The notes under the pieces were generated by a model, which did not search any database, was not told the DNA's origin, and worked only from the letters and a program-made list of their open reading frames with translations. DNA of 64,000 nucleotides from positions 198,626 through 262,625 of the forward strand of contig JAIBCM010000003.1 in assembly GCA_019694135.1 (NCBI GenBank), read 5' to 3'. This DNA is from Verrucomicrobiia bacterium (GTDB taxonomy: Bacteria > Verrucomicrobiota > Verrucomicrobiia > JADLBR01 > JAIBCM01). This document shows, piece after piece, positions 24,413-51,423 of this stretch; position 1 is the stretch's first letter; every line of letters begins with the position of its first letter. The position numbers were made by a program, and so were the translations under genes.

Positions 24413-24630
24413 GATTAACGTAAAACTGCCACAACAGAAAAATGAGAAGCAAGCACCTTCGTCGATTGACGAATCGCTACAAAAAACGGAGTCTGTCTTA
24501 AAACTAAACTTGCCACAGATTTTTATTCTCTAGCATTTTCCTAGGAAATGTCGACTGAAATTACTAAGCAATTTTAAAATAAATTTACCCTTGTTTCTCA
24601 ACCGATTCCTATCAAACTATAATAACTAAC

Positions 24631-29321: not shown

Positions 29322-29996
29322 TTAACGTGTTTGATTCAAAGTCGTATGATTTTGAACTCTCTGATTTTCCACAATTGGTGGTGGAGAGTAAGTATCAGGA
29401 TTAATTGCATCCGGCATACGATAGCTTGCAATTTTATCAACAGAAAAAGCGGAAATTTTTACTTGATCGCTTTGGTTACCACCTAATAAATAAACCGTTT
29501 TTCCATCTTTTGAAACTCCAGCAACAAAACCGACATGCCCCTTGCCTTTTCCATAATCAATCACTGCAATGGCACCATAAACAGGTTCTTCAGCTTCCTG
29601 TCCCCAATTTTTCCAAGACAAAGCTGCCGCACTATTGGTACCTGGATAACCCGCTTGTTCCATAGTCCAATTTACAAATGAACTACACCAAGGTGTTTCG
29701 TCATCATTAGCTCTCAATTTAGTGGAATCATGATACTCAATAATTCGCTCAGAATTCTCAGAACCGCTAATTTCTTTAATACCACTCGCATCTTCACAGC
29801 CTGCCATAAGCATCCAGTTGCTAGGATCACAAATTGGAGCAACCAATTCTTTTGTAGTCAAAATATCACGTCGCCCTCGTCCAATCGCTAAAAAATTTTT
29901 GGGCTGCATATAAAAATTCAAACCTGCAAAAAAACCTTCTTTTAAAGGTGCTTGAGGTGCTTTTCCCACACCACTCATAATAATTTCGTTTTCCAT
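29322..29996 (-). CDS. CHAP / NlpC-P60-like cysteine peptidase-amidase domain protein with unknown N-terminal domain
   Basis: C-terminal TPWCSSFVNW (Cys) ... GHVGFV (His) resembles CHAP-type papain-fold amidases; no signal peptide. Confidence 0.5.
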   Translation of the reverse strand: MENEIIMSGVGKAPQAPLKEGFFAGLNFYMQPKNFLAIGRGRRDILTTKELVAPICDPSNWMLMAGCEDASGIKEISGSENSERIIEYHDSTKLRANDDETPWCSSFVNWTMEQAGYPGTNSAAALSWKNWGQEAEEPVYGAIAVIDYGKGKGHVGFVAGVSKDGKTVYLLGGNQSDQVKISAFSVDKIASYRMPDAINPDTYSPPPIVENQRVQNHTTLNQTR

Positions 29997-30001
29997 ATTT
30001 T

Positions 30002-30262
30002 TTATTTTCTAAGATTTTTGTTTAATGCAATTTGAAATTCACTAACAAGTTGATCACTCGTAATTCCACTCAAAATCCAAATCATTAACTGTTCATAAGA
30101 AACAGCACGCCCAAAACGTTTTTTAATTAGCTCTGAGGCTTGAAAAAATTCTCGCATAATTAGATCGGGAATTTTTAGCACAACATCATGTTGAGTTTCT
30201 AAAAGAGCTTTTTCTGATTTTTTCACATTGAAAATATTCTTTAAAGAAACAAATTCGCTCAA
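30002..30262 (-). CDS. Small hypothetical protein (tandem paralogue of 30263..30532)
   Basis: 86 aa; shares E-L-M-V/I-W-I-L-S-x-I block with neighbour. Confidence 0.5.
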   Translation of the reverse strand: MSEFVSLKNIFNVKKSEKALLETQHDVVLKIPDLIMREFFQASELIKKRFGRAVSYEQLMIWILSGITSDQLVSEFQIALNKNLRK

Positions 30263-30532
30263 CTATTTTCTTCCACTCTGTTTCGCAGCTGATCGCAAGG
30301 CCAGAGCCTCTTCAAATTCTTTAATCAAATAATCTTCTCGAATTTCACTTAAAATCCAGACCATCAATAATTCGGGTGAAATATCGTAATCGTATTCTTT
30401 TTGAATTTTTTGAGAAGCTCGCTGAAATTCACGAAGCAAATTTTGAGGCAATTTCAAACAAAACTCGACATCTTTATTAGAAAAATTCTTTTTAACTGTT
30501 TTCTGAGTGTTACGAGTAGTTTTTTTCTTCAC
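30263..30532 (-). CDS. Small hypothetical protein (tandem paralogue of 30002..30262)
   Basis: 89 aa; LREFQRASQKIQKEY...LLMVWILSEI similar to the adjacent gene; stop abuts next start. Confidence 0.5.
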   Translation of the reverse strand: MKKKTTRNTQKTVKKNFSNKDVEFCLKLPQNLLREFQRASQKIQKEYDYDISPELLMVWILSEIREDYLIKEFEEALALRSAAKQSGRK

Positions 30533-30582
30533 TAGATTAAGAATATCCGATTTATAAAAAATATCAATCGACTAACTTTAGT

Positions 30583-31023
30583 TTAATAATTTAACTTTGG
30601 TGCAACTGCCCCCGGCGTGGGAGCGGTTTGCAATTCGCCCTTGTTAAGCGCATCCCAAACTGATTGTTTACAATCTACACTTTCTCCCCCCTTCACAGCT
30701 AGTTTACGACCCACTTCATTATTATTCACGTCCATTACTATTTCTTCAGGTGGATTCTCGCCATATTGCTCATGAATATTCCCAATCTTTTCTGCCTGGT
30801 CAGTACCTAACTCTTGTGCCATTCGACATGATAAATATGCATGACGAAAAGCATCTCTTTGCCCGTTATGTCTACCAGGAAGCCCAGTTTTATCGGAAAC
30901 TTGAAAAGCTTCTTCTCCTATATTACTAGCTTCATTAGCATCCAGAGGCCCAACCGCTAAAACTTGAGTTCTAACTTCAGGTTTATCAAAAAATTTTTTA
31001 ATTTTATCATAAATTTCACCCAT
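30583..31023 (-). CDS. Hypothetical protein with conserved RDAFRHAY (R-x4-H) and HE motifs
   Basis: 146 aa; motif fits the HEPN R-x4-6-H pattern, but assignment is speculative. Confidence 0.45.
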   Translation of the reverse strand: MGEIYDKIKKFFDKPEVRTQVLAVGPLDANEASNIGEEAFQVSDKTGLPGRHNGQRDAFRHAYLSCRMAQELGTDQAEKIGNIHEQYGENPPEEIVMDVNNNEVGRKLAVKGGESVDCKQSVWDALNKGELQTAPTPGAVAPKLNY

Positions 31024-31052: not shown

Positions 31053-31895
31053 TCAATTTTGTGCTTTTTGAGCAACAAAATAACGATCTTTCAAAGATAA
31101 ATCTTTCAGAACCTCTATTTCAATTAAACCGCTCTGCTCTCCCATGTGCATGACCTCATTTTTTTGATCTTCTCCCATTTCCAACAAAAGCCATCCACCC
31201 GATTTTAAATAATTATCAGCCTTTTCGATAAGATTTCGGATGATAGCCAAACCATTTTCTCCACCATCCAAAGCTGGCTCAGGATCCGCTTGAACTTCTG
31301 GAGATAAATTTTTTAAAATGGAAGTAGGTAGATAAGGAGGATTTGAGACGATAATGTCCACTAAAGGCATTGTTTCTTCCAAAAGATTACATTGAATCAA
31401 TTGCAATCGATCCACCACTTTTAATTTTTCAGCATTCTCTTGGGTCAAAGCGAGCGCTTCAGAGCTTATATCACTTGCAATTGCCTTCCATCCCGGTTTT
31501 TGCAATAGAAACGTAATGGCAATAACTCCGCTCCCCGTCCCCACATCCCACAAAACTCCTTCTTTTTGAGTCGCTTTACTCAAAGCAAGCTCCACCAATT
31601 TTTCCGTTTCAGGACGTGGCACTAAAGCTCGCGCATCCGATTTAAAAGTGTAACCATAAAACTCAGCAGTTCCAATAATATGTTGCAAAGGCTCACGGCT
31701 TGCACGTCGTTTTACCAAGTTCCTCAATCGCGCTAAATCGCCCTCGTCAATTTCTCGATCAAACTGCAAGTAAAGATCAAGCCGTTTGACTCCCAACCCA
31801 AAAGCGATCAACTGTTCCGCATTCAATCGCGGCGAATCAACTCCCTGTTTCTGAAAATAATCGGAAGTAATTTGAATGAGCTCCAAAAGCTTCAT
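31053..31895 (-). CDS. prmC: Release factor glutamine N5-methyltransferase
   Basis: NPPY motif (IVSNPPY) and SAM-binding VGTGSG; 4-nt overlap with prfA. Confidence 0.9.
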   Translation of the reverse strand: MKLLELIQITSDYFQKQGVDSPRLNAEQLIAFGLGVKRLDLYLQFDREIDEGDLARLRNLVKRRASREPLQHIIGTAEFYGYTFKSDARALVPRPETEKLVELALSKATQKEGVLWDVGTGSGVIAITFLLQKPGWKAIASDISSEALALTQENAEKLKVVDRLQLIQCNLLEETMPLVDIIVSNPPYLPTSILKNLSPEVQADPEPALDGGENGLAIIRNLIEKADNYLKSGGWLLLEMGEDQKNEVMHMGEQSGLIEIEVLKDLSLKDRYFVAQKAQN

Positions 31896-32977
31896 TGCAA
31901 CTCCGCCAATCGCGCTTCCAAATGATTTTTTCTTAAGGCTTCTAGCATCTCTTCAATGCTACCCTCCATGAATTCGCTCAAATTATAAAGTGTTAAATTA
32001 ATGCGATGATCCGTGATTCGATTTTGCGGATAATTGTAAGTGCGAATCTTTTCATTGCGATCTCCCGTCCCTACTTGGCTTTTGCGATTGGCAGCATATT
32101 TGGCATCCTCTTCTGCGCGCTGCTTTTCTAACAATCGAGAACGTAAAACATTTAAGGCTTTTTCACGATTTTTTAATTGGGATCGTCCATCCTGACATCG
32201 CACAATCATACCGCTAGGAATATGCAAAACTTGCACCGCTGAATCAGTAGTATTAACACCTTGCCCACCTGGCCCTCCCGAGCGACACACCTCAATACGC
32301 AACTCATCCGGACGAATCACAATATCCACCTCCTTCGCTTCGGGCAAAACTGCTACCGTGGCGGTGGAAGTGTGAATACGACCTTGCGCTTCAGTTGCAG
32401 GAACACGCTGCACACGATGCACACCACTTTCAAATTGAAAATATTTGTAAACCTCTTCACCAAACACTTGAAAAATCACTTCGCGAATACCGCCCAATTC
32501 GCCTGGACTCAAATCCATAACCTCCCATTTCCAGAACGGATTTTTTTCAATATAACGCGTATACATTCGGTAAAGATCAGCAGCAAACAAAGTCGCTTCA
32601 CTGCCACCCGTGCCCGCGCGAATTTCAACAATCACATTTCGCTCTTCATCAGGATCGGCTGGCAATAAAGCCGCCTGAGCCGCTAAAGCTAAATGAGCAT
32701 GTTTCGCCTTTAACTCCTCTTGTTCCGCCTCCAACATCTGAAGAAACTCAGGATCTTGCTCTGCACCATCCGCTAAAAGTTTTTCATTGGCCGTCAAATT
32801 GCGAGAAACTTCTTGCAACGCTTCATAGTCAGCCAAAGCGGCTTTTAAACGACTATGTTCCCGCGTGACCTCCTGCGCCTTTTGAGGATTAGAAAAAACG
32901 CTTCCCTCAGAAAGTTGCGCTTCCACTTCCTGAAACCGTTTTCGCAATCGTTCAAAATGAGGTGTTAAATCCAGCAT
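31892..32977 (-). CDS. prfA: Peptide chain release factor 1
   Basis: GGQ motif (SGGPGGQGVN) and RF-1-like body. Confidence 0.9.
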   Translation of the reverse strand: MLDLTPHFERLRKRFQEVEAQLSEGSVFSNPQKAQEVTREHSRLKAALADYEALQEVSRNLTANEKLLADGAEQDPEFLQMLEAEQEELKAKHAHLALAAQAALLPADPDEERNVIVEIRAGTGGSEATLFAADLYRMYTRYIEKNPFWKWEVMDLSPGELGGIREVIFQVFGEEVYKYFQFESGVHRVQRVPATEAQGRIHTSTATVAVLPEAKEVDIVIRPDELRIEVCRSGGPGGQGVNTTDSAVQVLHIPSGMIVRCQDGRSQLKNREKALNVLRSRLLEKQRAEEDAKYAANRKSQVGTGDRNEKIRTYNYPQNRITDHRINLTLYNLSEFMEGSIEEMLEALRKNHLEARLAELQ

Positions 32978-33410: not shown

Positions 33411-36400
33411 ATGATTACGCATCAACCTTACCATTTTACTCTGAACGGAAAAAAAATTCAAATTACTGATGAATCTCCGAATTTAACCCTTCTGCAATAT
33501 TTGCGACAAAATGGTCACATTGGCTCCAAAGAAGGTTGTGCTGAGGGTGATTGCGGCGCGTGCACAGTAGCGATTTTGGAACGCAATGCAAAAGGTGAAG
33601 CCTCTTATCGTGCGGTAAATAGTTGCATTATGCTCCTCCCCATGTTGGCGGGTCGCGAAGTGATCACTTCGGAAGGATTAGCCTGTCATGAAACCTTACA
33701 CCCGGTGCAGCAAGCGATGGTGGCCAATCACGGCTCGCAATGCGGTTATTGCACGCCGGGTTTTGTCATGTCACTCTTTGAAGCTTACTATCGCAAAGAT
33801 CTGAAGCAACAATGGCAAATTAACGATCAACTTTGCGGCAATTTATGTCGTTGCACGGGTTATCGACCTATTCGCGATGCTGCAGTGGAAGTATTAACAG
33901 GACGATTTAAAAATGGTGTGACTGATCCTTTTGCGGAAAGATTGGAATGCGTTAAAAATGAGTCACAATTAGCGCCCGGTCAATATGCGCCTAATTCGAA
34001 ACAATTTTTCTTACGTCCCAGTTCTCTCAAAGAGCTTTTGCAAATGATTCATGAGTTTCCCGATGCGCGACTTATCGCAGGCGGTACAGAACTGGGAGTC
34101 GATATTGCAAAAAATTTCAAATATCATCCTTACTTAATTTCCACAGAAGCCGTAGGGGAACTCAAAACGATTACCTCTACCAAACAAGAATGGCACATTG
34201 GCGCCGCAGCTACTCTCACCCAAATTGAGGAAACGTTACAAGGCGAAATTCCTTCCATTCAAAAAATGTTAACCGTATTTGCATCGCGCCAGATTCGCAA
34301 TCGCGCCACGCTTGGAGGAAACCTGGTAAACGCCTCCCCTATTGGCGATATGGCACCGGTTTTATTGACTTTAGACGCGCGTCTCATTGTTGCCTCGATG
34401 GATGGTGAAAGGGAAATTCCGATTGATCAATTTTTCCTGGCTTATCGCAAAACTGCTTTAGAACCTCGCGAAATTTTGAAATCCATTATTATTCCCAGAC
34501 AATTACCCGGGCGCGCCAATTCCTTCAAAGTCTCTAAGCGAATGGAATTGGATATTAGCACCGTGGCTGCTGCATTTCGTGTGGAATTGGATGATGCAGC
34601 ACAGGTTAAAACCGCGCGTCTTGCTTATGGGGGTGTCGCAGCAACACCTGTACGCGCTAAAAAAACAGAACAGTTTTTACTTAATAAAGCGTGGAATCGC
34701 GAAACATTGACTGAAGCAATGGCTATCATTAAAGATGAATTCACGCCTATCACCGATGCACGCGGCACTGCGGATTATCGTCGTGAACTCATCCCTAGTT
34801 TATTGGAAAAATTTTTCGATGAAGAAGAATTTCCCATCAATTATAATGCCATTACGCCGATTCCAGCTCCCGCAATTCGACCGATTCCACATGAAAGCGG
34901 TCATAAACATGTCGCTGGCACCGCAATTTATGTCGACGATGCAGCGGAACCTGCTGGTATGCTCGAAGTCTGGCCAGTTTGTTCGCCTTACGCCCATGCG
35001 CGAATTATTAAACGCGATGCTCATCTTGCAAAACAAATGCCTGATATTGTTGCCGTGCTCATGGCAGAAGATGTGCCAGGTGAAAATGATGTGGGCGCGG
35101 TGCGACACGATGAAATTTTGCTCGCTGACAAAGAAACGCTTTACCACGGTCATCTGGTCGCACTAGTAGTTGGAAAAACTCAGGAAGCCTGTCGCGCAGC
35201 AGCCGCAAAAGTTCAAGTAGAATACGAACCTTTGGAGCCTGTAATTGATTTAAAAAAAGCAATCGCTCAAAACATGTTTCATACTGATCCGCATGTGATG
35301 GAACGAGGCGACGCAAAGAAAGTATTAAACAATTCGCCCAACACTTTAGTTGGCGATTTTCATTTTGGCGGTCAGGAACATTTTTATCTCGAAACTCACG
35401 CGGCATGGGCCGAACCGGGCGAAGATGGAGAAATGTTTGTGAGTTCATCCACGCAACACCCGTCCGAAATTCAAATTGTTGTCGCTCGCGTTTTGGGTGT
35501 TTCACGACACAAAGTCGTCTGCCAAAGCCCGCGCATGGGCGGTGGATTTGGTGGAAAAGAAACGCAAGGCAACACTCCCGCTGCGCTTGCTGCTATTGCT
35601 GCCCGAAAAACTGGTAAACGCGTCCGAGTGCGTCTCAACCGAGAACAAGACATGATTCTTAGCGGAAAACGTCATCCGTTTTATGCGCAATTTAAAATCG
35701 GTTTTGATAACGAAGGCAAATTACTGGCTTTGCAGGCGGATCTTTTTGCCGATGGGGGTTGGGCTTTGGATTTATCGCAACCTGTGGCCGATCGTGCGCT
35801 TTTTCATTTAGACAACTCTTATTACCTTCCCAACGTTCGCGCTACCAGTCGTGTTGTGAAAACTCATATTGCTTCCAACACAGCATTCCGCGGTTTTGGC
35901 GGTCCTCAAGGCATGTTGGTAATTGAAGAAATTATGGATCGCATCGCGCGTCAATTAGGTTTACCTCCCGAAACGGTTCGCGAGCGAAATCTTTATCATG
36001 GCACGGGTGAAACGAACACAACGCACTACGGGCAAGTTATCGAAGATAATCGTTTGCAAAAAATTTGGCATGAACTCATTCGCTCTTCCGACTTTCATCA
36101 ACGTCGTAAACAATTAAAACAACGCAATGCAGAAAATGCCCGCTTTAAACGCGGCATTGCCATTACGCCGGTTAAATTTGGGATTTCTTTCACTTTGACA
36201 CACATGAATCAGGCTGGAGCTTTTGTAGTGATTTATGCCGATGGCAGTGTGCAACTCAACCACGGCGGCACAGAAATGGGGCAAGGGCTTCACACTAAGA
36301 TGATAGCGGTCGCTGTGAAAGAGCTGGGCGTCAAAGTCGAACAAATTCGTGTGATGAACACAAGCACCGATAAAGTGCCAAACACCTCTCCTACTGCTGC

Positions 36401-37220
36401 TTCCAGCGGCTCCGATCTCAATGGACAAGCCGTGAAAAATGCCTGTGTCATATTGCGCGAACGTTTGACACCCGTGGCAATGAAATTGTTGGAGGAAGAA
36501 TTTCAGCAAAAATCGTCCGGGATCATTTTTGAAGATGGCGAAGTTTATGACAAAAAATTTCCGCACAACAAAATTTCTTTTATCGCTCTGACCCAACGCG
36601 CTTATGTCGAACGCATCAGTTTATCAACCACGGGTTTCTTCGCGACTCCCGGTATTTATATGGACTGGAGCAAGGGCAAAGGAAATCCTTTCCTTTATTT
36701 TGCCTGCGGTGCAGCAGTGACGGAAGTAGAAATCGATAGTTACACGGGCATGAATCGCATTTTGCGAGTCGATATTTTGCATGATGTTGGAAGCTCTCTT
36801 AACGAAGCGGTGGATCGTGGCCAAATCGAAGGTGCGTTTGTTCAAGGCATGGGCTGGTTAACCTGCGAAGAATTAAAATGGGATGATAAAGGCAAGCTCC
36901 TTACTAAATGCGCTAGTACTTATGCAATTCCTGCCATTAGCAACGCACCGATTGAATTTAATGTGAAACTGCTGCCCGATGCGGCACAACACAACACCAT
37001 TCACGGCAGCAAAGCCGTGGGAGAACCACCTCTCATGCTTGCAATTTCTGTGCGTGAAGCGCTTCGTGACGCTATCGCAGCCTTTAGCGAGTCAGGCGAA
37101 CAAATTCCTCTTCCCTCACCCGCTACGAATGAAGCGATTTATTTAACTTTGAAAAATAGGCAAACTTCAAAAAGTAACAAATCTAACAAAGAAAAGAAAT
37201 CTCTTAAAGTCTCTGCTTAA
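33411..37220 (+). CDS. Xanthine dehydrogenase, single-chain (2Fe-2S + FAD + molybdopterin domains fused)
   Basis: N-terminal 2Fe-2S cysteines (CAEGDCGACTV; CGYCTPG), FAD-binding middle, molybdopterin domain with GGGFGGKE; 1269 aa; adjacent to guaD-like and xdhC genes. Confidence 0.85.
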   Translation: MITHQPYHFTLNGKKIQITDESPNLTLLQYLRQNGHIGSKEGCAEGDCGACTVAILERNAKGEASYRAVNSCIMLLPMLAGREVITSEGLACHETLHPVQQAMVANHGSQCGYCTPGFVMSLFEAYYRKDLKQQWQINDQLCGNLCRCTGYRPIRDAAVEVLTGRFKNGVTDPFAERLECVKNESQLAPGQYAPNSKQFFLRPSSLKELLQMIHEFPDARLIAGGTELGVDIAKNFKYHPYLISTEAVGELKTITSTKQEWHIGAAATLTQIEETLQGEIPSIQKMLTVFASRQIRNRATLGGNLVNASPIGDMAPVLLTLDARLIVASMDGEREIPIDQFFLAYRKTALEPREILKSIIIPRQLPGRANSFKVSKRMELDISTVAAAFRVELDDAAQVKTARLAYGGVAATPVRAKKTEQFLLNKAWNRETLTEAMAIIKDEFTPITDARGTADYRRELIPSLLEKFFDEEEFPINYNAITPIPAPAIRPIPHESGHKHVAGTAIYVDDAAEPAGMLEVWPVCSPYAHARIIKRDAHLAKQMPDIVAVLMAEDVPGENDVGAVRHDEILLADKETLYHGHLVALVVGKTQEACRAAAAKVQVEYEPLEPVIDLKKAIAQNMFHTDPHVMERGDAKKVLNNSPNTLVGDFHFGGQEHFYLETHAAWAEPGEDGEMFVSSSTQHPSEIQIVVARVLGVSRHKVVCQSPRMGGGFGGKETQGNTPAALAAIAARKTGKRVRVRLNREQDMILSGKRHPFYAQFKIGFDNEGKLLALQADLFADGGWALDLSQPVADRALFHLDNSYYLPNVRATSRVVKTHIASNTAFRGFGGPQGMLVIEEIMDRIARQLGLPPETVRERNLYHGTGETNTTHYGQVIEDNRLQKIWHELIRSSDFHQRRKQLKQRNAENARFKRGIAITPVKFGISFTLTHMNQAGAFVVIYADGSVQLNHGGTEMGQGLHTKMIAVAVKELGVKVEQIRVMNTSTDKVPNTSPTAASSGSDLNGQAVKNACVILRERLTPVAMKLLEEEFQQKSSGIIFEDGEVYDKKFPHNKISFIALTQRAYVERISLSTTGFFATPGIYMDWSKGKGNPFLYFACGAAVTEVEIDSYTGMNRILRVDILHDVGSSLNEAVDRGQIEGAFVQGMGWLTCEELKWDDKGKLLTKCASTYAIPAISNAPIEFNVKLLPDAAQHNTIHGSKAVGEPPLMLAISVREALRDAIAAFSESGEQIPLPSPATNEAIYLTLKNRQTSKSNKSNKEKKSLKVSA

Positions 37221-40027: not shown

Positions 40028-40771
40028 TTAATCATTCGCTCGTTTAAATTCTCGCAAACGCCCTTTAAACGCCAGCTGCACCCATTCCCAGCGTTTATTA
40101 AGGGAAAGTCGTGCTGGAATCAAAGGCATAAACCCAACTAAATTTTGATTTCTTAACGCCGCTTCAAGATTGTTTTGCTCTCGAATTAAAGCATTACTGA
40201 TATCTTCATCCGTAATCGTTCGCGATTTTTCGAGTGGATTGCCAATTTGAATTAAAATAAAAGGTTTTTCTTCTTTCAAAAATTCATAGCGAAAAATAAC
40301 CGGTAAAAGTTGCGCGCGCGGCACGTTATTAGCCAAATAGGCTGTTCCCTCTTTTACTTCAATGGGAGTGTAGATAGAAGTCGTCTTTCCTTGAGGGAAA
40401 ATCCAGCATAATGATTCAGGATTTTGCAATAATTGAATCGTATAACGCACCGAAGCCGCCGCACGAAGAGGATTGGACGTGTCGACCGAATACATTCCCA
40501 GCCAAGTGAAAAAACGATAATATTTTAATTGTTTTTCCTCCATCATACAAAAAGTCGCTTTTTGCGAATTGAATCGTGTTAGATAAAAAGTCAAAAAACC
40601 ATCCCACCAATTAGTATGATTAGCAAAACAAATAGCTGGATGCGTTTTTTCCAATTTAGAATAGTTTTCTAAACCTTTAACATAAATGCCTGAAAAATTA
40701 CGTCGCAAAAGCCAGCGACAATAAAGGTAAAAAAGACTGTCCAACAAAGGATTTTTATTGGCGGGAATCAC
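40028..40771 (-). CDS. Lysophospholipid (1-acyl-glycerol-3-phosphate-type) acyltransferase family protein
   Basis: HxxxxD acyltransferase motif (HTNWWD) and downstream FPQG-like block. Confidence 0.6.
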   Translation of the reverse strand: MIPANKNPLLDSLFYLYCRWLLRRNFSGIYVKGLENYSKLEKTHPAICFANHTNWWDGFLTFYLTRFNSQKATFCMMEEKQLKYYRFFTWLGMYSVDTSNPLRAAASVRYTIQLLQNPESLCWIFPQGKTTSIYTPIEVKEGTAYLANNVPRAQLLPVIFRYEFLKEEKPFILIQIGNPLEKSRTITDEDISNALIREQNNLEAALRNQNLVGFMPLIPARLSLNKRWEWVQLAFKGRLREFKRAND

Positions 40772-41642
40772 AAGAACCCTTTTTATAAAGCCAATAAGCT
40801 TTTAAAACAAGTCGGAGTTTTTTGAATAAAGAGACATGATGCCTAACAGAAACATCATAGTCGTGTTTGGCAATCTCATCCAAAATCGCAGCATACACAT
40901 ATCTCATAATCCAAACCGTAAATTGAGAACCATCATCAGCCAAAGAAGAAATGCCTTTTTCGCTTGTTAGATAATATTCTTGCGCACGTTGAGCAAAGAA
41001 AATGGCGTATTTTTTCCAATTTTCCTGAGTAAAACCGTTTGTTAAATCGACCTGATACGACTCCAATTCTTCTGCAGGTAAATAAACTCGATGGTTTTCA
41101 TAATCTTCTTTCACATCACGTAAAATATTGGTCAATTGCATCGCAATCCCCAGGCTAATCGCGTGCTCTTTCGCGTTCGGATCTTTTATTTCAAAAATGT
41201 GACTCATGATAAGTCCCACCACTGACGCAACGTAATAACAATAATCCTCCAGATCTAACCAGGTCTTGATTTGAATGGAAGGTTGAGCATCCATTTCTAC
41301 TCCTTTGATTAAATTTTCAAAGTGGCCTTTCGGGATTCGATAAGTTCGAATCGTGGAATAAAAAGCGTCTGCCCAATCGAATTGCTCTGGAACATTTTTG
41401 GAATAAAATTGATTCAGTATCTTTCTAAGGTTCTGAGCAACTTCCAATTGATCTTCAAAAGATGTGCTGCAATCCATTCTATCATCGACATAACGACAAA
41501 AAGCGTAAACAGCATAAGCAGCATCTTTTTTCTTTTTAGGTAAAGCGAAGGAAGCAAAGTAAAAACTTCTAGCATGTTGACGAGTCATTTCCCGAGCGGC
41601 TTGGAAACTTTGCTGCAAATGTGAAGATTTAGCGGTTGGCAT
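40755..41642 (-). CDS. Squalene/phytoene synthase family protein
   Basis: Asp-rich motifs YAFCRYVDDRMD and ILRDVKEDY typical of trans-isoprenyl diphosphate synthase head-to-head enzymes. Confidence 0.75.
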   Translation of the reverse strand: MPTAKSSHLQQSFQAAREMTRQHARSFYFASFALPKKKKDAAYAVYAFCRYVDDRMDCSTSFEDQLEVAQNLRKILNQFYSKNVPEQFDWADAFYSTIRTYRIPKGHFENLIKGVEMDAQPSIQIKTWLDLEDYCYYVASVVGLIMSHIFEIKDPNAKEHAISLGIAMQLTNILRDVKEDYENHRVYLPAEELESYQVDLTNGFTQENWKKYAIFFAQRAQEYYLTSEKGISSLADDGSQFTVWIMRYVYAAILDEIAKHDYDVSVRHHVSLFKKLRLVLKAYWLYKKGSCDSRQ

Positions 41643-42477
41643 TCAAAAAATAATTACGCTGCTTTTCACTAATTGGCATTTCCATTTTTTCCATTACCAT
41701 TAGTAAATCCTCCCAAACTTTGCGTTTTTCAGTGTTGCTCTGATTTCTTAAAAGATAAGCGGGATGATAAGTTGGCATTACTGGGATATCTTGAAATTGA
41801 AGCCAGTGCCCACGCAATTTCCCAATCGGCGCTTCGACCCCTAAAAGACCAGTAACCGCCGTTGCACCCAACGCAATAATAGCTTTCGGTTGAATTAGTT
41901 CAATCTGCTCCTTGAGATAAGGTAAACAAGTGTTCATCTCTTCAATGGTTGGTTTACGATTGCCTGGCGCACCTGGCGGCATATCGGGACGACATTTCAA
42001 AACATTGGAAATATAAACTTCATCACGCGATAAATCCATTGCTTCCAACATTTTATTGAGTAATTGTCCAGCCCGCCCCACAAAAGGTTCCCCCAAACGA
42101 TCCTCATCCGCTCCAGGGGCTTCTCCAACCAACATCAATTGGGCATCAATATTGCCAATACCGAAAACAACCTGAGTGCGACTCCTGACAAGATGCGGAC
42201 ACTTTTGACAGACCAATGCAATGTTTTTTAAATGTTCAAGTTTCTTTTTTTTATCGTTTTCAGAAAGATGTTCATGATGCGTTTTTTCTGAATTTTCTTT
42301 TTTCATAGAGGATAGATTTGGAGTTATTTTGGAAAAATCCGCAACACTTGAAAATCGAATAAAACGATCTCCTCGTTTTTTGCGTTGCTCTAAATATTGC
42401 AAAAGAATTTCAGAAGTTTTTGCCATGACGCAGTTGCTCAAGTAAGTGAATAAAATCTTCGGGCAAACCCGCCTCAA
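41629..42477 (-). CDS. Uracil-DNA glycosylase, family 4 type
   Basis: GEAPGADEDRLGEPFVGRAGQLL motif and CxxC near N-terminus; true start may be internal. Confidence 0.75.
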   Translation of the reverse strand: MRRVCPKILFTYLSNCVMAKTSEILLQYLEQRKKRGDRFIRFSSVADFSKITPNLSSMKKENSEKTHHEHLSENDKKKKLEHLKNIALVCQKCPHLVRSRTQVVFGIGNIDAQLMLVGEAPGADEDRLGEPFVGRAGQLLNKMLEAMDLSRDEVYISNVLKCRPDMPPGAPGNRKPTIEEMNTCLPYLKEQIELIQPKAIIALGATAVTGLLGVEAPIGKLRGHWLQFQDIPVMPTYHPAYLLRNQSNTEKRKVWEDLLMVMEKMEMPISEKQRNYFLNANR

Positions 42478-43318
42478 TTACCATCTCTTTTTTAGTAAGA
42501 GGATGCTGAAAAATAAGTCGTCTCGCATGCAGCATTTGCCGAGGTGCTTGAGATGCAACTTTACCATAAAGTTTATCTCCAAGCACCGGACATCCTATGG
42601 AAAGCAAATGAACTCGGATTTGATGCGTACGCCCTGTTAAAATTTGACACTCTAAAAAGCTCGCAGCCTTGAATTTCTCTATTATTTTATATCGCGTAAT
42701 AGCTAGTTTGCCTTTTTTCGAAACTGCCATCTTTTTTCGATGAACGGGATGCCTCTCTATTGCTGATATAATTTCTCCTTCCGATTTCTTAGGGAAAGAT
42801 TGGGCTAAAACTTGATAAAATTTTTGAATTTTTCGATCCTTAAATTGCTGTGATAAAGCCTGATGAGCTTTATCAGTTTTAGTAACAAGCAACACGCCAC
42901 TTGTTTCCTTATCCAAACGATGAACGATTCCTGGCCTTTCCACACCACCGATCCCCGAAAGCGAGCCCCGGCAATGATGCAACAAAGCGTTAACCAGTGT
43001 CCCTTCAGAATGTCCAGGAGCCGGATGCACAACCAAACCCTGCGGTTTGTTAATTGCTAGAAATTCATCATCTTCATATAAAATCTGCAATGCAATTTCT
43101 TCGGGTTTCAAATTCAAAGATTGCATCGGCGGAAAATGAATCGTTATCTCATCTCCTATTCGAACTCGAATAGAAGATTTCGCCGATTTTTGATTTACTA
43201 AAATACACGAACCGCGAATTAATTGTTGAATCCGAGAGCGCGTTAATTCAGGATTTTTTTTAACCAACCATTGATCAACGCGCAACCCCGCTTCATCCAC
43301 AAATAAAACCCGATCCAT
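42410..43318 (-). CDS. RluA-family pseudouridine synthase (RluD-like)
   Basis: S4-like N-terminus and catalytic HRLDKETSGVLLV motif. Confidence 0.85.
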   Translation of the reverse strand: MDRVLFVDEAGLRVDQWLVKKNPELTRSRIQQLIRGSCILVNQKSAKSSIRVRIGDEITIHFPPMQSLNLKPEEIALQILYEDDEFLAINKPQGLVVHPAPGHSEGTLVNALLHHCRGSLSGIGGVERPGIVHRLDKETSGVLLVTKTDKAHQALSQQFKDRKIQKFYQVLAQSFPKKSEGEIISAIERHPVHRKKMAVSKKGKLAITRYKIIEKFKAASFLECQILTGRTHQIRVHLLSIGCPVLGDKLYGKVASQAPRQMLHARRLIFQHPLTKKEMVIEAGLPEDFIHLLEQLRHGKNF

Positions 43319-43337
43319 ATCAATGGATTACTCTAAC

Positions 43338-43814
43338 CTACTCAGGGAAAAATTTTTCAAATTTTACCGTGCCATCTGCCATAACAACGACATTTCCCGA
43401 AGAATATATCTGATTTTTTCCAACAAACAAATAAAGTTGATCTCGATCCTCTGCATAAAAAAAATCTTTAGGACAAACTCCACCATAAAAAAAATCTGGT
43501 AGATCACCTGCTTGATGTTTGGGCTGAGTCGGATCATACCAAGCCTCATCAGGAACACCATAAGCTTTAAGCTGCCTTTGCCACCATTTCATATCACTGG
43601 ACAATTGTTCCGTAGATTTTGCAGTTTCTGGATTCATATCATCAAACATTTTTTGCGCTCCAGAATAAAGTTGTTGAGCACGAGAGAGACACTTGGTTGT
43701 ATTAATGTGCTTACGAAACGTGAAAAATGTGGGTATTGAAATCCCTATCAACAATGCGATTAGAGACATTGTAATTAAAAGTTCTAAAAGAGTAAAAGCC
43801 TTTTGCGATTTCAA
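43338..43814 (-). CDS. Prepilin-type N-terminal cleavage/methylation domain protein (pseudopilin-like)
   Basis: N-terminus KAFTLLELLITMSLIALLIGI matches prepilin leader plus hydrophobic helix. Confidence 0.7.
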   Translation of the reverse strand: MKSQKAFTLLELLITMSLIALLIGISIPTFFTFRKHINTTKCLSRAQQLYSGAQKMFDDMNPETAKSTEQLSSDMKWWQRQLKAYGVPDEAWYDPTQPKHQAGDLPDFFYGGVCPKDFFYAEDRDQLYLFVGKNQIYSSGNVVVMADGTVKFEKFFPE

Positions 43815-43825
43815 ACCTTAAGACA

Positions 43826-44491
43826 TTAACGATAAACTTTCGTTGTGGGAATACCAAAAAAATTCGGAACAGTAGAGATTTTTTTTGCCTCAACTATAAC
43901 ACCTGGGACTGTTTTAGAACTTCTTATAATAGTAACCCCAGTTTGCCTATCAAAATCCACACGCATATTATTGTTATCAGAGGTGTACTCAACGTTACCT
44001 CTCATTATTTTTCCAGGCGCTTTTTTCTGATAAAACATTATTCCTTCAACTAATAATTCAGCTGAAAATCTTTGAATAAATGGAATTTCTACGGGGCCAA
44101 ATGAAAAGGTAATATTCCTATTTTTAGAATCACCTGGTATAGAAATAATATTAGTCCCAGAACCTAGGGTGCTTCCAAAAGGTAAAACCAAAACGGATCC
44201 TCGCGTATTAACTTTTCTTCCCGCAACAAATAAAAACCCTTGCAAAACTCGACCTTCATGAAATCCCAGGGGGCTAAAATTTAAAGTAAAAGTAAAAAGT
44301 CCTCCATTCAAAACAAAAGTAAAACCTTCTCCAGTAGTATCATTAAAAGTAATAGGAATACGTTGTGGTCCAATCATACATTGATAAGTTCCAACAATTT
44401 TAATATCTCGTTCAGCTTGGGCTTTAAGCTGAGTACTGTTAACAAACACTAATGTTAAAACAACAAGTAAAATTATGATTTTTTGTTTCAT
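43826..44491 (-). CDS. Hypothetical secreted protein
   Basis: Signal peptide (MKQKIIILLVVLTLVFVNSTQLKA); no recognised motifs; sits between secretin and prepilin-like genes. Confidence 0.45.
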   Translation of the reverse strand: MKQKIIILLVVLTLVFVNSTQLKAQAERDIKIVGTYQCMIGPQRIPITFNDTTGEGFTFVLNGGLFTFTLNFSPLGFHEGRVLQGFLFVAGRKVNTRGSVLVLPFGSTLGSGTNIISIPGDSKNRNITFSFGPVEIPFIQRFSAELLVEGIMFYQKKAPGKIMRGNVEYTSDNNNMRVDFDRQTGVTIIRSSKTVPGVIVEAKKISTVPNFFGIPTTKVYR

Positions 44492-44495
44492 AGAC

Positions 44496-46892
44496 TTAGC
44501 GGCTTGCAGTTTTTTGTGAAGGTATGACTAATGGTTCAGGTGGATTGACTAATTCTCCTGTTGGCGTAATTAATTTAGGGGTCACAAAAATCACCAAATT
44601 CTTTTTAATCGATTGCTCTACATCTGAACGAAAAAATCGACCTAAAAGAGGAATATCGCCAAGAATGGGAATCTTATCTTTAATTTTTTGAACATCTTCA
44701 CGTAATAAACCGCCTAAAATAACGGTGGACCCATCTTTAACCTGAACACTTGTCTCAATACGTCGAGAATTAAATACTGGCATATTAATAACGTTTTCAG
44801 TTAAAACAAAGGTTTGATCCCCATCAGCTACGGTCATAGGTGTACCATAATTAATAAATCCTTCAAAATCTTCGACCAAAGGAACAAGATTAAGATCAAT
44901 CGTTTGATTATCAGGACCAACCTCCGGGGTGACGTTTAAAATAACACCGACTTCTCTATCAGTAAAATTAGAAGGTTGTGCCGGAGTAATAACAGGCGGC
45001 GGTTGACTAATAAGATTATTAACGTCATTTGCTCCACCACTTGATGTGGTAGGAGGCAATTCAGGAGCATCATAAGTATCAGCATAAGAAAATCGACGAA
45101 CAATTTTTATGGTAGCTTGTTCACCACTACGAGCCACCACTTTCGGCGCTGACAAAAGATCGACTGATTTTTTCTGAGCTAAAGTTCGGATTAAAACATC
45201 AATATTATATTTGGCAATACCCACAGCAAAATTAAAGCTATTGGGTATAGGTCTCGCATCAATACCGTTATTTTGAGAAAGCAAAGCATCGACTGAATTA
45301 GGTTTGATATGAGCCGAACTTCGTAATCCATCAAAATGGTTTAATCCATCCATATCAAGAGGGGAAAAATTACCTGATGGACGAGTATAATTTCCCTCTT
45401 TCACTACGTTCATTGCAATCGAAAGTTCATCAAAATCGGTTTGATTAAGTTCGATAAACTTGGCCTCAATTTCAACCTGAGCAGGAATATCGGTTGGAGA
45501 ACCAACTAAGGCATCAATGAGCTCCAAATTAGCCGGAGAATTTCGAACAGTCAATTTACTGGACGCTGAAGAATAAGAAGCGCTAGCGCCTTCAGGAAAA
45601 GTAACACCTCGTGATTCTAAAACTTTTCGAATATCGGTTTCTCGCTCAAATTGCACTTTTTCCATAAGAGAACGACTAAAAGATCTTCGTGTGCGAGAAC
45701 CCCCTTGTTGTTCTCCACCCGTTTCAACATTAAAAAAGTCTGGTTTAACACGATACTCTTTGGTCAATAACTGATCGGTTGGCGCTGTTAAAGGAAGAAT
45801 ACTCACCGAAAACTCATCCATTTGATATTTTAAATTGGCTAAACGCGTCGCATAACGAATGACTTCCTCTAAAGGAACACTCTGAAGATTTAATGTTACC
45901 TCAGATCCCATTGAGTCAGGAGTTAAACGCGAAACAAAATTAATACCCTTTCTTTCGGGATCGAGTTCTTTACTTTTTACATTGAGAAAATCAATAACAT
46001 CTAAAATGCTAGCTCGATCAAAAGCTACTTGAGGCAGAATAATCGTTTTTAATTTTCTGCTAAGATTTTCTACATTGGAACGTGTTAAAGGGGCATTGGC
46101 AAAAATTCCGGAATCCGAAATCACATCTTTGGGAATGGGCATTTCCCATTTTTCAGTAACTTCAGTCATGCCTTGAAAACGAGCTACTTCTTGAGCTTTT
46201 TTAGCATAACGCAACTTATGATCTAACACCTTATCTAATCGCTTACGTGCCGTGCTATTGAAAGGATCGATCGTCAAAATTTGCTGATATTTTTTCTCTG
46301 CCTCATCAAATTGAGCCGTGTCCAATAAATCATCACCCTCTTGCAACAAAGTATTCACATCTGCCACATCTTTTAAATAACGCGGAGTAATAGCAGGATT
46401 ATCACGTTCAATCATGGGCTTACCCTCTTGATCTAAAGCAATACCCATCGCAGCATACAAACTCGCTCGCTCTGCTTGAATGCGAGAATCTTTAGGCGCA
46501 AAAGATAACGCTTCATCAGCATTCGCTCTAGCTTCATCCAAAAGGTTGGCTTTTAAATTTTCATGAGCTAATTGTATCAAGGCAACGGCTGCCCCATCAT
46601 AAGCCTTATTTTGCAACGGCGCGGTCGCCGGAGAAGGAGCCGGTAAAAGAGCTACAATCGCACGATATTTTTCTAAAGCTTCTTTATAACCTTGCGCTTC
46701 TAACAAAGCATTTCCCTCTCTGAGTAAAGCAGTTCCTCGAATCACAGCTTGTTGACGCTTTAATACTGCAGTTTGAGAAGCTTTTTGTGCGCTGATATAA
46801 TCGGACTGATCAACATTCCCATTCCCTAGCAAAGCCAAAGGTGCTATACCTAATAAAAAGAAACAAAAAATTTTATAATAACAAAGTTTCAT
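44496..46892 (-). CDS. Secretin-family outer-membrane channel protein (PilQ/GspD-like), copy 2
   Basis: C-terminal secretin signature (VILGGLLREDVQKIKDKIPILGDIPLLGRFFRS); signal peptide; TPR-like N-terminal region. Confidence 0.8.
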   Translation of the reverse strand: MKLCYYKIFCFFLLGIAPLALLGNGNVDQSDYISAQKASQTAVLKRQQAVIRGTALLREGNALLEAQGYKEALEKYRAIVALLPAPSPATAPLQNKAYDGAAVALIQLAHENLKANLLDEARANADEALSFAPKDSRIQAERASLYAAMGIALDQEGKPMIERDNPAITPRYLKDVADVNTLLQEGDDLLDTAQFDEAEKKYQQILTIDPFNSTARKRLDKVLDHKLRYAKKAQEVARFQGMTEVTEKWEMPIPKDVISDSGIFANAPLTRSNVENLSRKLKTIILPQVAFDRASILDVIDFLNVKSKELDPERKGINFVSRLTPDSMGSEVTLNLQSVPLEEVIRYATRLANLKYQMDEFSVSILPLTAPTDQLLTKEYRVKPDFFNVETGGEQQGGSRTRRSFSRSLMEKVQFERETDIRKVLESRGVTFPEGASASYSSASSKLTVRNSPANLELIDALVGSPTDIPAQVEIEAKFIELNQTDFDELSIAMNVVKEGNYTRPSGNFSPLDMDGLNHFDGLRSSAHIKPNSVDALLSQNNGIDARPIPNSFNFAVGIAKYNIDVLIRTLAQKKSVDLLSAPKVVARSGEQATIKIVRRFSYADTYDAPELPPTTSSGGANDVNNLISQPPPVITPAQPSNFTDREVGVILNVTPEVGPDNQTIDLNLVPLVEDFEGFINYGTPMTVADGDQTFVLTENVINMPVFNSRRIETSVQVKDGSTVILGGLLREDVQKIKDKIPILGDIPLLGRFFRSDVEQSIKKNLVIFVTPKLITPTGELVNPPEPLVIPSQKTASR

Positions 46893-49454
46893 TTATTTCA
46901 TCCTTCCCTGAGGCTCATTTACTATCCTCAACTCCTGAGGCTCTTGAGTCGAATCCCAACGAGGAACCTCAGCAAAAGTAGGATTATTATCAAAGCTTTG
47001 TGTATCTTCAAAATTACGTTTATTAAAAAGTTCTCCATCAGATCGAATCAAATTACAGGTAACAAAAATCAACAGATTCTTTTTAATGCTTTGATCAATT
47101 TTCGAACGGAAAAGACGCCCTAATAATGGTAAATCGCCCAGTAAAGGAATTTTATCATCAACTTTTTGAATGTCTTCCCGGATTAATCCACCTAATAAAA
47201 CTGTTTGACCATCTTCAATACTCAATCGCGTTTTAACCTCTCGATAATTAAAAACAGGTGTGTTAATAATATTATCAGCGACTTTAACTGCTTGAGACGT
47301 TCCCAAGTCTAAAGCATTAATAGGATTTCCATAATTAATGAATCCTTCAAAATCGACAACTCTAGGTGTTAACTGAAGATCAATCGTTTGATTATCAGGA
47401 TAAAGTTGAGGATTGACCGTCAAAATGACGCCGATCTGCTCATTTTTAAAAGTCGAAGGAGTTGAAGGAGTCACAGCACGGTAGCCATTTCCACTCGGCA
47501 ACTGTGAAATAGACGCATCAATTTGAGGTGGCTCAATAGCTTGAGGATCAGGATAAAAAAAGTCGCGAGCAATACGAATTTCAGCATCTTGAGAAGGTTT
47601 AGTGACTACTTTGGGCACAGCTAAAAGATCAGCACCCGTTTTTTGTGAAAGCGCATAAACTAACAATTCAAACTTATACTTACTTAATGAAATCGCACTT
47701 TGAAACGCTGTTCCTAAAGGCCCTGCAAAAGCGGTAGCGGCTCCTGCTAATAAAGCATCAAAAGTATTAGCATTAATAGCATTTCCTCCCACTGCTAAAT
47801 CTACCGGTAATCCCAAAACCTCCGTTGAAGCCGAAGGAGCTGAAGTTCTTAAACCAGGAGTATCAGTTGGAGCCGATTGAGAACGTCCTCTTCGATTAAT
47901 ATTCCAACGGAAAGAAAGCTCATCCAAATCAGTCTGATTCACCTCCATAAAACGAGTTTCGATTTGAACCTGAGGAACTTCCTGACTTTCCGAACTAATC
48001 ACACTTTCAATCAAAGCTAAATTATCCAATGTATTTCGAACTACGAGCAAACTTCCATTCGACAAATAATTAGCCGAGGAGCCGGGAGGAAATTGAACAC
48101 CATAAGTTTCTAATTTTGTCTTCACTTCTTCACGAGCAATATTGACTGATTCACTTAACGTGCCACCGTCCTTGCTCTCAATTTTCGCGCCAATAAAACC
48201 CGCTGGCACTTGGAACGTGCGAGTAAATAACGCCTCAATATTTTCTGAAGCCGGCGCCACTAAAACTGCATATTCCTCCACTTTATAGATCAAATCCGCT
48301 TGTTTTGCGATAAGATCCAAAACCGCGGCCAAAGGCAAATTTTCTAAGTTCAAAGTAATGCGACGCGCATCAATCGTTTCAATCGAAACCTGCTCGCCAG
48401 CGCTCGGTTGACTTTCTGCAGCATCTGAAACAGTTGCAATCGTGGTCTTCAAAACAAAATTCAAACCTTGCCCAGTCGGATCTAACTCTTTGGATTTAGC
48501 CTGTAAAAAAGTCACCGCTTCTTCCACCGATGCTTCGTCAAAATTAATTTTATCAATAATAATATTGTTTAACTTTTCCTCAATACGTGCCGTATTCGAC
48601 AAACTCGCAGCAGAAACACTTCTCTCTTCGCGAGGCTTCAAAATATTACGATTCACCGGATTACTCCAAGCTTTCGTCACTTCATAAAGCATTTCTTTAC
48701 GACTATTCTCTTTAGCATCTTTGGCATATTTCAAACGCAGTTGAGAAACTCGCTTCAAACCGTCCTGTGCAGCCTTATTATAAGGATCAATCGCCAAAAC
48801 CTTTTTAAAGTTTTCTTCTGACTTAATATATTGCCCAGTTTCGCGCTGTTTTTCGCCTAAATCCAAAAGCCGTTTCACTTCTCCAACAGCTTGCACAAAC
48901 TCAGGTGTCACTGCAGAATTGGGCTCAATTACCAATCCCTCACCCGATTGTTTTTGAATCGTCTTAGCAAGTTTCTGCAACTCCTTATCTTCAGGAGAAT
49001 AAGCTAACGCCTCAGAAACATAGCCTCCTGCTGTCTGAAATTTTCGCGTTTCCAAAGCCTCCTCAGCCAAACGCATATTAGCCATCGTCAACCCCTCAGC
49101 CGCAGCCTGATAAAGATCGAAAGTATTCGTTGTCATCGGCAAATTCTGCAAAACAAAACGATAACGATCCGCTGCAGAAACATATTCTTTAGCGGAATAA
49201 AGCTGTTCGCCTTCCACTAAAGCTTTTTTGCTGCCAGTAAAAAGTTTTTGTCGTCGCGCTGTTTCATTTTGCAAAGCGCGATCAACTGCTGCATTTTCAG
49301 CATAAACCATGTTTTGCGTCAAAAAAATGGAACCTAAGAAAAAACCAAGACAAAAGAAACGATTGCTACCCTTCAATCTCATAAAGTAAGTCGATAGTGA
49401 ATAGAGCCTTTCTTGAATGCAAGAATTAATTTCCCTTATTTTTAAAATATTCAA
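46893..49454 (-). CDS. Secretin-family outer-membrane channel protein (PilQ/GspD-like), copy 1
   Basis: C-terminal secretin signature (VLLGGLIREDIQKVDDKIPLLGDLPLLGRLFRS); paralogous throughout to copy 2; start possibly the internal Met before the hydrophobic segment. Confidence 0.8.
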   Translation of the reverse strand: MNILKIREINSCIQERLYSLSTYFMRLKGSNRFFCLGFFLGSIFLTQNMVYAENAAVDRALQNETARRQKLFTGSKKALVEGEQLYSAKEYVSAADRYRFVLQNLPMTTNTFDLYQAAAEGLTMANMRLAEEALETRKFQTAGGYVSEALAYSPEDKELQKLAKTIQKQSGEGLVIEPNSAVTPEFVQAVGEVKRLLDLGEKQRETGQYIKSEENFKKVLAIDPYNKAAQDGLKRVSQLRLKYAKDAKENSRKEMLYEVTKAWSNPVNRNILKPREERSVSAASLSNTARIEEKLNNIIIDKINFDEASVEEAVTFLQAKSKELDPTGQGLNFVLKTTIATVSDAAESQPSAGEQVSIETIDARRITLNLENLPLAAVLDLIAKQADLIYKVEEYAVLVAPASENIEALFTRTFQVPAGFIGAKIESKDGGTLSESVNIAREEVKTKLETYGVQFPPGSSANYLSNGSLLVVRNTLDNLALIESVISSESQEVPQVQIETRFMEVNQTDLDELSFRWNINRRGRSQSAPTDTPGLRTSAPSASTEVLGLPVDLAVGGNAINANTFDALLAGAATAFAGPLGTAFQSAISLSKYKFELLVYALSQKTGADLLAVPKVVTKPSQDAEIRIARDFFYPDPQAIEPPQIDASISQLPSGNGYRAVTPSTPSTFKNEQIGVILTVNPQLYPDNQTIDLQLTPRVVDFEGFINYGNPINALDLGTSQAVKVADNIINTPVFNYREVKTRLSIEDGQTVLLGGLIREDIQKVDDKIPLLGDLPLLGRLFRSKIDQSIKKNLLIFVTCNLIRSDGELFNKRNFEDTQSFDNNPTFAEVPRWDSTQEPQELRIVNEPQGRMK

Positions 49455-49460
49455 AATTAA

Positions 49461-51394: not shown

Positions 51395-51423
51395 ATTACT
51401 TTTTTCTCATTTCTCTATTTTTC

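Follow-up and report, generated by a model that had tools for sequence, protein, structure and literature searches.

Paralogous small cytoplasmic proteins attached to stand-alone toxin domains in a Verrucomicrobiia bacterium: possible regulators of effector modules rather than classical immunity proteins

In a 64,000-nt stretch of a Verrucomicrobiia contig (JAIBCM010000003.1, positions 198,626 to 262,625; hereinafter the window) we found two neighboring small genes, A and B, which belong to a very narrow, nearly orphan family and accompany two unrelated effector-type domains, namely a DUF6973/BteO-like domain in the case of A and a CHAP amidase in the case of B. A classical immunity role for these proteins is unlikely. 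Instead, we tentatively posit that they may be small dimeric DNA-binding regulators of an RHH-like type that control the expression of the modules to which they belong, a reading that we regard as possible rather than probable.

The cassette comprises four co-directional genes on the minus strand (Table 1) lodged between prfA–prmC (31053-32977) and a convergent ribF–truB–rnr block, these five being the cassette-flanking genes. The CHAP gene starts 5 nt past the stop codon of B. The small genes have a GC content of about 30% as compared to 41–47% in the flanks, and no Rfam family above threshold, tRNA or intrinsic terminator is found in the cassette or adjoining it. Elsewhere, the window carries a long co-directional minus-strand cluster (40028-53205) with tandem secretins (44499-46892 and 46896-49454) and a PilM-like gene (51427-53205), which resembles a type IV pilus or T2SS-like apparatus in which the secretins are duplicated. 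It also codes for a xanthine dehydrogenase as one fused 1269-aa ORF (33411-37220); the counterpart in a related MAG (L001 3301-7120) is called as three pieces of 607, 183 and 227 aa, which may reflect a pseudogene or a misassembly.

Table 1. Genes and promoter-like elements of the cassette (coordinates are those of the window)
Feature	Coordinates	Strand	Description
DUF6973/BteO-like effector domain, stand-alone	30583..31023	minus	146 aa, without signal peptide; upstream of A
P_A promoter-like element	30540..30567	minus	TTGATA, 16-nt spacer, TATTCT
Gene A	30263..30532	minus	89 aa, GTG start; small protein, predicted cytoplasmic
Gene A, architecture			basic K/R/T-rich tail; alternating-hydrophobic segment with Pro at its end; three helices (predicted)
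A–B spacer holding P_B promoter-like element	30227..30262	minus	36 nt; TTGAGC, 17-18-nt spacer, GAATAT/AATATT
Gene B	30002..30226	minus	74 aa, GTG start at 30226 (probable); paralogue of A
Gene B, longest mechanical ORF	30002..30262	minus	86 aa, TTG start
TIGR02594/CHAP amidase	29322..29996	minus	224 aa, without signal peptide; downstream of B

The two small ORFs named in a preliminary description of this DNA are present on the minus strand at the coordinates given there (89 and 86 aa), and the central block that it saw in them, along with the divergence of their N-termini, is borne out by alignment. In a single BLASTP comparison A and B are 45% identical, with 67% positives, across an ungapped stretch of 55 residues (E 2e-15), a similarity far beyond chance; the shared block reads LLREFQRAS...PELLMVWILSEI in A and IMREFFQAS...YEQLMIWILSGI in B, while the N-terminus is a K/R/T-rich tail of about 20 aa in the former and MKKSEKALLETQHD in the latter. 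The end-to-start abutment of the two ORFs, which had also been claimed, holds for the longest mechanical ORF of B but not for its probable start, which leaves a 36-nt non-coding spacer. That start is most likely the GTG at 30226, 36 nt further downstream than the TTG at 30262, because the B orthologues P0004 and P0005 are annotated at 74 aa, a B-like relative (P0007) has an ATG start at the aligned MKKS position, and in contig L008 a stop codon lies in frame 12 nt ahead of the aligned B start.

A and B are real genes under purifying selection. Pairwise dN/dS values in diverged orthologue pairs are 0.04–0.32 for A (orthologues P0001–P0003 and P0006) and 0.07–0.32 for B (0.07–0.12 among the cassette orthologues), with all four cassette genes showing values of about 0.04–0.3 in diverged pairs and about 0.05–0.2 among cassette-bearing loci. 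Neither protein has a signal peptide or TM segment (15-aa hydropathy peaks at 0.9 or less within the first 30 residues), and both are predicted to be cytoplasmic; a holin role is ruled out by the lack of a TM segment. The tail of A is basic: 8 of the first 20 residues are K/R (9 in the orthologue P0003), and the protein has a pI of 9.6. Two other family members, P0007 and P0008, are acidic (pI 5.0–5.5). B and P0007 have the same N-terminal tail, although their partner genes are different.

A HMMER profile scan of all 1.84 billion 50%-cluster representatives recovers this small-gene family as just five clusters: two A-type (P0003 and P0006), two B-type (P0005 and P0007) and one distant (P0008). 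A word-indexed search of 5.8 billion proteins yields close orthologues of A and B only, and among GTDB species genomes the family is confined to one Verrucomicrobiia MAG. There are no relatives in viral contigs, and tblastn searches against phages and plasmids return only noise. Searches of Pfam, NCBIfam, PHROGs, PADLOC and PDB sequences with single sequences and profiles of A and B likewise give nothing significant; in Pfam, no family is matched at E<=1 by A or B, and none at E<=10 by any of the nine members. The family is thus nearly orphan and very narrow, with no described family matching it. Each chromosomal member adjoins a stand-alone polymorphic-toxin or T6SS-effector domain without a signal peptide, and a toxin-domain neighbor is seen in three of the four contexts of the family. 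In addition to the two in the window, P0007 (contig L006) immediately precedes the gene of a DUF4329 protein, at a locus between gyrB and typA. The fourth context is that of P0008, the most distant member (68 aa; L005 1175-1381), which lacks the N-terminal tail and whose contig carries an ArdC antirestriction gene; at this locus no recognizable toxin domain adjoins it, and the downstream 124-aa gene is without a family match.

The neighbors of A and B in the window are indeed of the toxin/effector type, as had been supposed. The upstream one, earlier singled out by an R-x4-H motif, belongs to the DUF6973 family (Pfam E 1.3e-20, 73.6 bits against a cut-off of 27) and has a counterpart with 100% identity in a "Verrucomicrobiae bacterium" MAG. 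Elsewhere in metagenomes this domain is an RHS toxin tip, since it comes C-terminal of the RHS core end motif (…DPIG…DPFGL) and the YD-shell domain (P0013, P0014 and an ORF of L013). The family profile matches BteO, a T6SS effector of B. fragilis (PDB 9uu0_A, E 1.5e-7), which is also the top Foldseek match of the AF2 model of the window protein (pLDDT 84; probability 0.99, TM 0.51). Its invariant residues R60, H61, H84, E85, E94 and D98 align to R143, H144, H167, E168, D187 and D191 of BteO, the mutation of which abolishes toxicity (PMC12541434). The Pfam match, the homology to BteO and the conservation of these essential residues together place it among the DUF6973/BteO-like domains.

Compared with the BteO–BtiO pair of B. 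fragilis (PMC12541434; PDB 9uu0), the window protein keeps the residues for toxicity and OmpA-binding (R/H, H/E, D/E, D) but lacks the N-terminal TM helix and the surrounding T6SS locus, and it is followed not by a BtiO-like periplasmic OmpA-C-like immunity gene but by one for a small signal-less protein predicted to be helical. The published views of such domains conflict, with one describing a non-enzymatic OmpA binder (PMC12541434) and the other a lipid-head-group enzyme (PMC12419801). The H/E/D/N/G pattern of DUF6973 fits the signature of the Lipocone superfamily as given in the latter study, and the AF2 model has weak Foldseek matches to Wnt7a/Wnt8 and to class A acid phosphatases (PAP2); we treat a possible membership in the Lipocone superfamily as a lead. 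We also observed that the invariant H61, E85, D98, N101/N102 and G105 lie on three consecutive helices, and that DUF6973 has a conserved C-terminal tail of the form LQTAPxPGxxxPxxxY.

The protein downstream of B matches Pfam CHAP (E 3.8e-12), the NCBIfam amidase family TIGR02594 (E 6e-37) and a PHROG tail lysozyme (E 3e-34), and its translation displays the catalytic PWCSSF and GHVGFV motifs. Amidases of the TIGR02594 family occur in T6SS effectors (PMC13055248) and also as phage tail lysozymes. The DUF4329 domain next to P0007 corresponds to the Tox-JAB-2 domain of Zhang et al. (PMC3482391). The N-termini of the DUF6973, CHAP and DUF4329 proteins are all devoid of a signal peptide.

A comes after DUF6973 in every contig with visible upstream DNA (the window, L001, L007–L011 and L015–L020), a linkage seen in about 12 contigs of five sequence types. 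B and CHAP are a separate module, gained and lost as a unit. Contig L015 is 100% identical to L007 up to the last codons of A and 99% identical again inside ribF; between these points a 21-nt junction (L015 6506-6526) replaces a 968-nt segment of L007 (6262-7229) with the end of A, B and CHAP. The junction keeps a 9-nt remnant of the CHAP 3′ end in frame with A, whose C-terminus becomes ...SGRVKR, and the remnant indicates that B–CHAP was lost by a clean deletion between these near-identical strains. The module is also absent in the more distant lineages L002, L003 and L017, and a B-type gene occurs elsewhere with a different partner, as in P0007. The tandem pair thus consists of two modules placed side by side and is not the product of local duplication beside one toxin, as had originally been claimed; a recent tandem duplication is ruled out, with the A-type and B-type genes being old clades.

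The cassette further shows mosaic recombination with breakpoints at gene boundaries. Between L007 and L008 the identity is 100% for A, 99% for B and 98% for CHAP, but only 64% for DUF6973. Between the window and L001, the CHAP genes (L001 10535-11209) have a dS of 0.13 and 98% amino acid identity as against a dS of 0.62 for B, with A, B and DUF6973 falling in the range of 0.6–1.0. A few kb from the cassette there is also a strain-level indel of a TA module: a Phd/YefM antitoxin and a 94-aa RelE/ParE-like gene are found between a 134-aa gene and thrS in L001 (15784-16306) and L007 (11488-12010), and are missing from the window (24483-24622) and L008.

The usual interpretation of polymorphic-toxin and T6SS effector domains is that of an effector paired with its cognate immunity protein, and it was in this sense that the preliminary description took A and B as candidate immunity proteins. 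The toxin context stands, but the immunity role itself does not follow from it. A and B do resemble the immunity proteins of polymorphic toxins (PMC3482391), including those of the Lipocone toxins (PMC12419801), in being small, fast-diverging tandem paralogues that lie directly beside toxin domains (A after DUF6973, B before CHAP and P0007 before DUF4329) and conserve only a hydrophobic core. They differ in having no match to an Imm family, and for two of the three partner toxins their compartment is probably the wrong one. The toxicity of BteO is restricted to the periplasm and is not seen when BteO is cytoplasmic; BtiO, which confers immunity to it, carries a signal peptide and is a periplasmic OmpA mimic (PMC12541434). 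To the extent that the target compartment can be taken over from homologues, the signal-less A and B would not reach it. A BtiO-like immunity function is ruled out for them by the absence of a signal peptide.

The relatives of both window effectors point in the same direction. RHS–DUF6973 toxins are followed by homologous lipoproteins (L012 864-1274 and L013 642-1190; 32% identity, E 6e-20, no Pfam match), which constitute a candidate periplasmic immunity family for BteO-like toxins that differs from the published description of BtiO. In 6 of the 80 metagenome loci with related TIGR02594 amidases, another conserved lipoprotein adjoins the amidase, which in these cases carries a peptidoglycan-binding N-terminal domain. 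This lipoprotein of about 140 aa, with the motif FW..FR.A (L033 5546-5983, L077 5554-5979, L041 991-1398 and L026 350-787; also in L037 and L039), is likewise a candidate immunity family. No homologue of either lipoprotein family is found in the window and, conversely, none of the 80 loci has an A/B-like gene. Thus, the immunity role is disfavored because one 55-aa core accompanies three unrelated folds (DUF6973, CHAP and DUF4329/Tox-JAB-2), because the relatives of both effectors pair with periplasmic or lipoprotein partners that are absent here, because A and B lack a signal peptide or TM segment, because related CHAP loci do without an A/B-like gene, and because A is invariant between L007 and L008 despite the divergence of DUF6973. 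The low dS of CHAP relative to B in the comparison of the window with L001 also shows the two not to co-vary.

The regions upstream of the small genes show a recurrent promoter-like organization. In a promoter scan, the −10 box of P_A ends 7 nt before the GTG of A; the −35 box (TTGACA/TTGATA), the −10 box (TAnnnT) and the distance of about 7 nt are kept in L001, L007, L008, L017 and L002, while the spacer sequence varies. P_B, with 6–7 nt from its −10-like box to the GTG of B, fills the whole A–B spacer, and a perfect TTGACA is found at its −35 position in L001, L007 and L008 as well as upstream of P0007. More generally, every A, B and P0007 gene is preceded by a TTGACA-like box, a variable spacer of 16–18 nt and a TAnnnT-like box that stops about 7 nt short of the GTG or ATG start codon; in L007 and L008 this distance is 5 nt and the box is also weak. 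Given this short distance, the mRNAs of A and B are predicted to be leaderless or to have a 1-nt leader. A Shine-Dalgarno-like AAAGG(G)A lies upstream of the ATG of DUF6973, and also before CHAP in L007 and L008, though it is not clear there in the window. The conservation of the promoter-like element suggests that it travels with the small gene, and in the two-gene modules of B and P0007 it is the small gene that lies proximal to the promoter. In the window and L001 the −35 box is overlain by an imperfect inverted repeat, CGATTGAT-N7-ATAAATCG, which is not kept in L007, L008, L017 and L002, and no conserved operator-like repeat was found in the promoters of the small genes.

RHH domains are characterized by an N-terminal β-strand with alternating inward-facing hydrophobic residues followed by two helices linked by a short turn with an S/T/N N-cap. 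They form obligate dimers via an antiparallel β-ribbon that is inserted in the major groove of DNA, typically at repeated operator half-sites. The alignment of the A/B family (A2) has invariant L26, P29, F36, S52, M57, L61 and F73, and displays in all members hydrophobic residues at positions −1, −3 and −5 before the invariant proline and an invariant serine before helix 2. The resulting pattern of an alternating hydrophobic/polar segment, an invariant Leu-x-x-Pro, a first helix, a short loop and another helix with a serine N-cap can be read as RHH-like, with an extra third helix (EFEEAL) that is conserved in the family and is not part of the RHH core. There is no invariant polar residue across the family and hence probably no catalytic site, but rather a scaffold with variable surfaces.

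A and B are comparable to RHH regulators and antitoxins, such as Arc/Mnt, CopG, ParG, omega of omega-epsilon-zeta and the ParD/CcdA type, in several respects beyond this pattern: a size of 70–90 aa, a predicted cytoplasmic location, the basic and presumably flexible N-terminal tail of A and its orthologues, and placement as the first gene of a small operon, behind a promoter-like element of its own, in modules that are gained and lost between strains. They differ from them in the lack of a significant sequence or profile match, a loop without the usual glycine, the conserved third helix, the lack of detected operator repeats, and the two acidic members. The AF2 monomer of A is also strandless, with helices at 30-47, 53-62 and 66-86 and no secondary structure in residues 1-29. 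Searches of NCBIfam, PHROGs and PDB sequences gave no RHH match, and hhalign comparisons against nine RHH sequences returned P values of 0.05–0.8, not better than those of the controls (0.17–0.9).

In the reading that we tentatively favor, each small protein would dimerize and bind DNA in an RHH-like manner and would repress its own promoter, thereby setting the expression of the attached effector gene, and each small gene would mark a separate module, A that with the DUF6973/BteO-like domain and B that with CHAP. This reading derives from the unrelatedness of the effector partners, the lack of co-variation with them, the predicted cytoplasmic location, the basic tail of A, and the promoter-like elements and promoter-proximal position of the small genes. 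The association of one domain with three unrelated effector folds, and the tail shared by B and P0007, argue for a generic role as opposed to a fold-specific neutralization. Moreover, by analogy with BteO, which is toxic only in the periplasm, and with the lipoprotein partners of the relatives, a cytoplasmic immunity protein would not be needed. Small regulators are common in plasmid- or ICE-type settings, and the occurrence of P0008 on an ArdC contig is accordingly counted in favor of a regulatory role. Against it stand the lack of significant RHH similarity, the weak AAA+ lid-like signals described below, the absence of an operator repeat, the acidic P0007 and P0008, and the third helix.

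Somewhat unlikely, in our view, is that A and B are antitoxins or cytoplasmic immunity proteins that neutralize toxin domains acting inside the cell, e.g., on lipid II or UDP-MurNAc-peptide precursors, such that the cassette would contain two TA-like or abortive-infection-like modules. The layout would suit this, with the small gene tightly upstream of the larger one in B–CHAP (5-nt gap) and P0007–DUF4329, and with the reverse-order DUF6973–A pair having a promoter-like element for the small gene; so would the strain-level presence and absence, which is like that of the nearby bona fide Phd/YefM module, and the lack of signal peptides, of secretion genes adjoining the cassette and of a periplasmic immunity gene within it. 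Signal-less stand-alone Min-Wnt/Lipocone domains have been proposed to act on lipid II from within the cell (Burroughs et al., PMC12419801), which fits with the Lipocone-like pattern and the weak Wnt/PAP2 matches of DUF6973. However, BteO is harmless in the cytoplasm (PMC12541434), a single 55-aa domain would need to neutralize three unrelated folds, and the partner-specific segments are very short, those of B and P0007 even being shared between different partners. Nor is the expected evolutionary coupling seen, with A remaining invariant as DUF6973 diverges and CHAP being exchanged without B.

The weak signals in the profile searches raise a different prospect, namely that A and B have some other role, for example as a stand-alone AAA+-lid-like protein-binding module, and that their adjacency to effectors reflects shared mobility rather than shared function. 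The resemblance recurs in a match to the NCBIfam RFC large subunit (positions 234-285, E 0.021, in three of the nine members) and another to a PHROG clamp-loader family (E 0.047), and in L002, L003, L015 and L017 the block ends with A, without an effector downstream. Yet none of these matches is significant, and mere co-mobility sits uneasily with the invariable position of A after DUF6973 across five sequence types and with the polymorphic-toxin domains in three of the four family contexts; we deem such a role fairly doubtful. Quite improbable is an export adaptor or chaperone function, by which A and B would capture the signal-less effectors inside the cytoplasm and pass them on to a secretion system or contractile-injection apparatus whose genes lie elsewhere. 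Each of the three partner domains is of a type known to be carried by T6SS, RHS or phage-tail machines (PMC12541434, PMC13055248, PMC3482391; PHROG tail lysozyme), all three proteins are signal-less, and B and P0007 sit just upstream of the effector as is usual for adaptor genes. This position and the predicted cytoplasmic location are shared with the T6SS adaptors and chaperones (DUF4123/Tap-1, DUF1795/Eag and DUF2169), but A and B are much smaller than these and show no homology to them, with no match to DUF4123, DUF1795 or DUF2169 at E<=10. Further, the cassette has no adjoining vgrG, PAAR, Hcp or tail genes, and among the ten ORFs annotated elsewhere in the window there is only the secretin/PilM cluster; A does not co-vary with DUF6973, and the 80 related CHAP loci dispense with any A/B-like gene.

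In the organization described here, three effector domains are stripped of RHS, of secretion signals and of their usual periplasmic immunity partners, and each is linked instead to a member of one tiny, undescribed protein family that is predicted to be cytoplasmic. A bolder proposal, which we consider unlikely, is that A and B are the founders of a new cytoplasmic partner family for domesticated toxin domains, i.e., a universal antitoxin, sensor or adaptor that would replace the periplasmic immunity protein and with which a Verrucomicrobial lineage would deploy BteO/Lipocone-like, CHAP and Tox-JAB-2 domains from inside against cell-wall precursors, in a TA- or abortive-infection-like manner, or export them without RHS or T6SS. 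At the level of annotation, the cassette cautions against automatically taking a small gene beside a toxin domain for one that confers immunity. If A and B are regulators, the addition is a modest one, of effector modules that come with their own switch. If instead they bind the effectors, they would illustrate how a cell keeps envelope-directed toxins, or makes use of them, in its interior, and would bear on the dispute over whether the BteO-type domain is an OmpA-binder (PMC12541434) or a Lipocone enzyme (PMC12419801).
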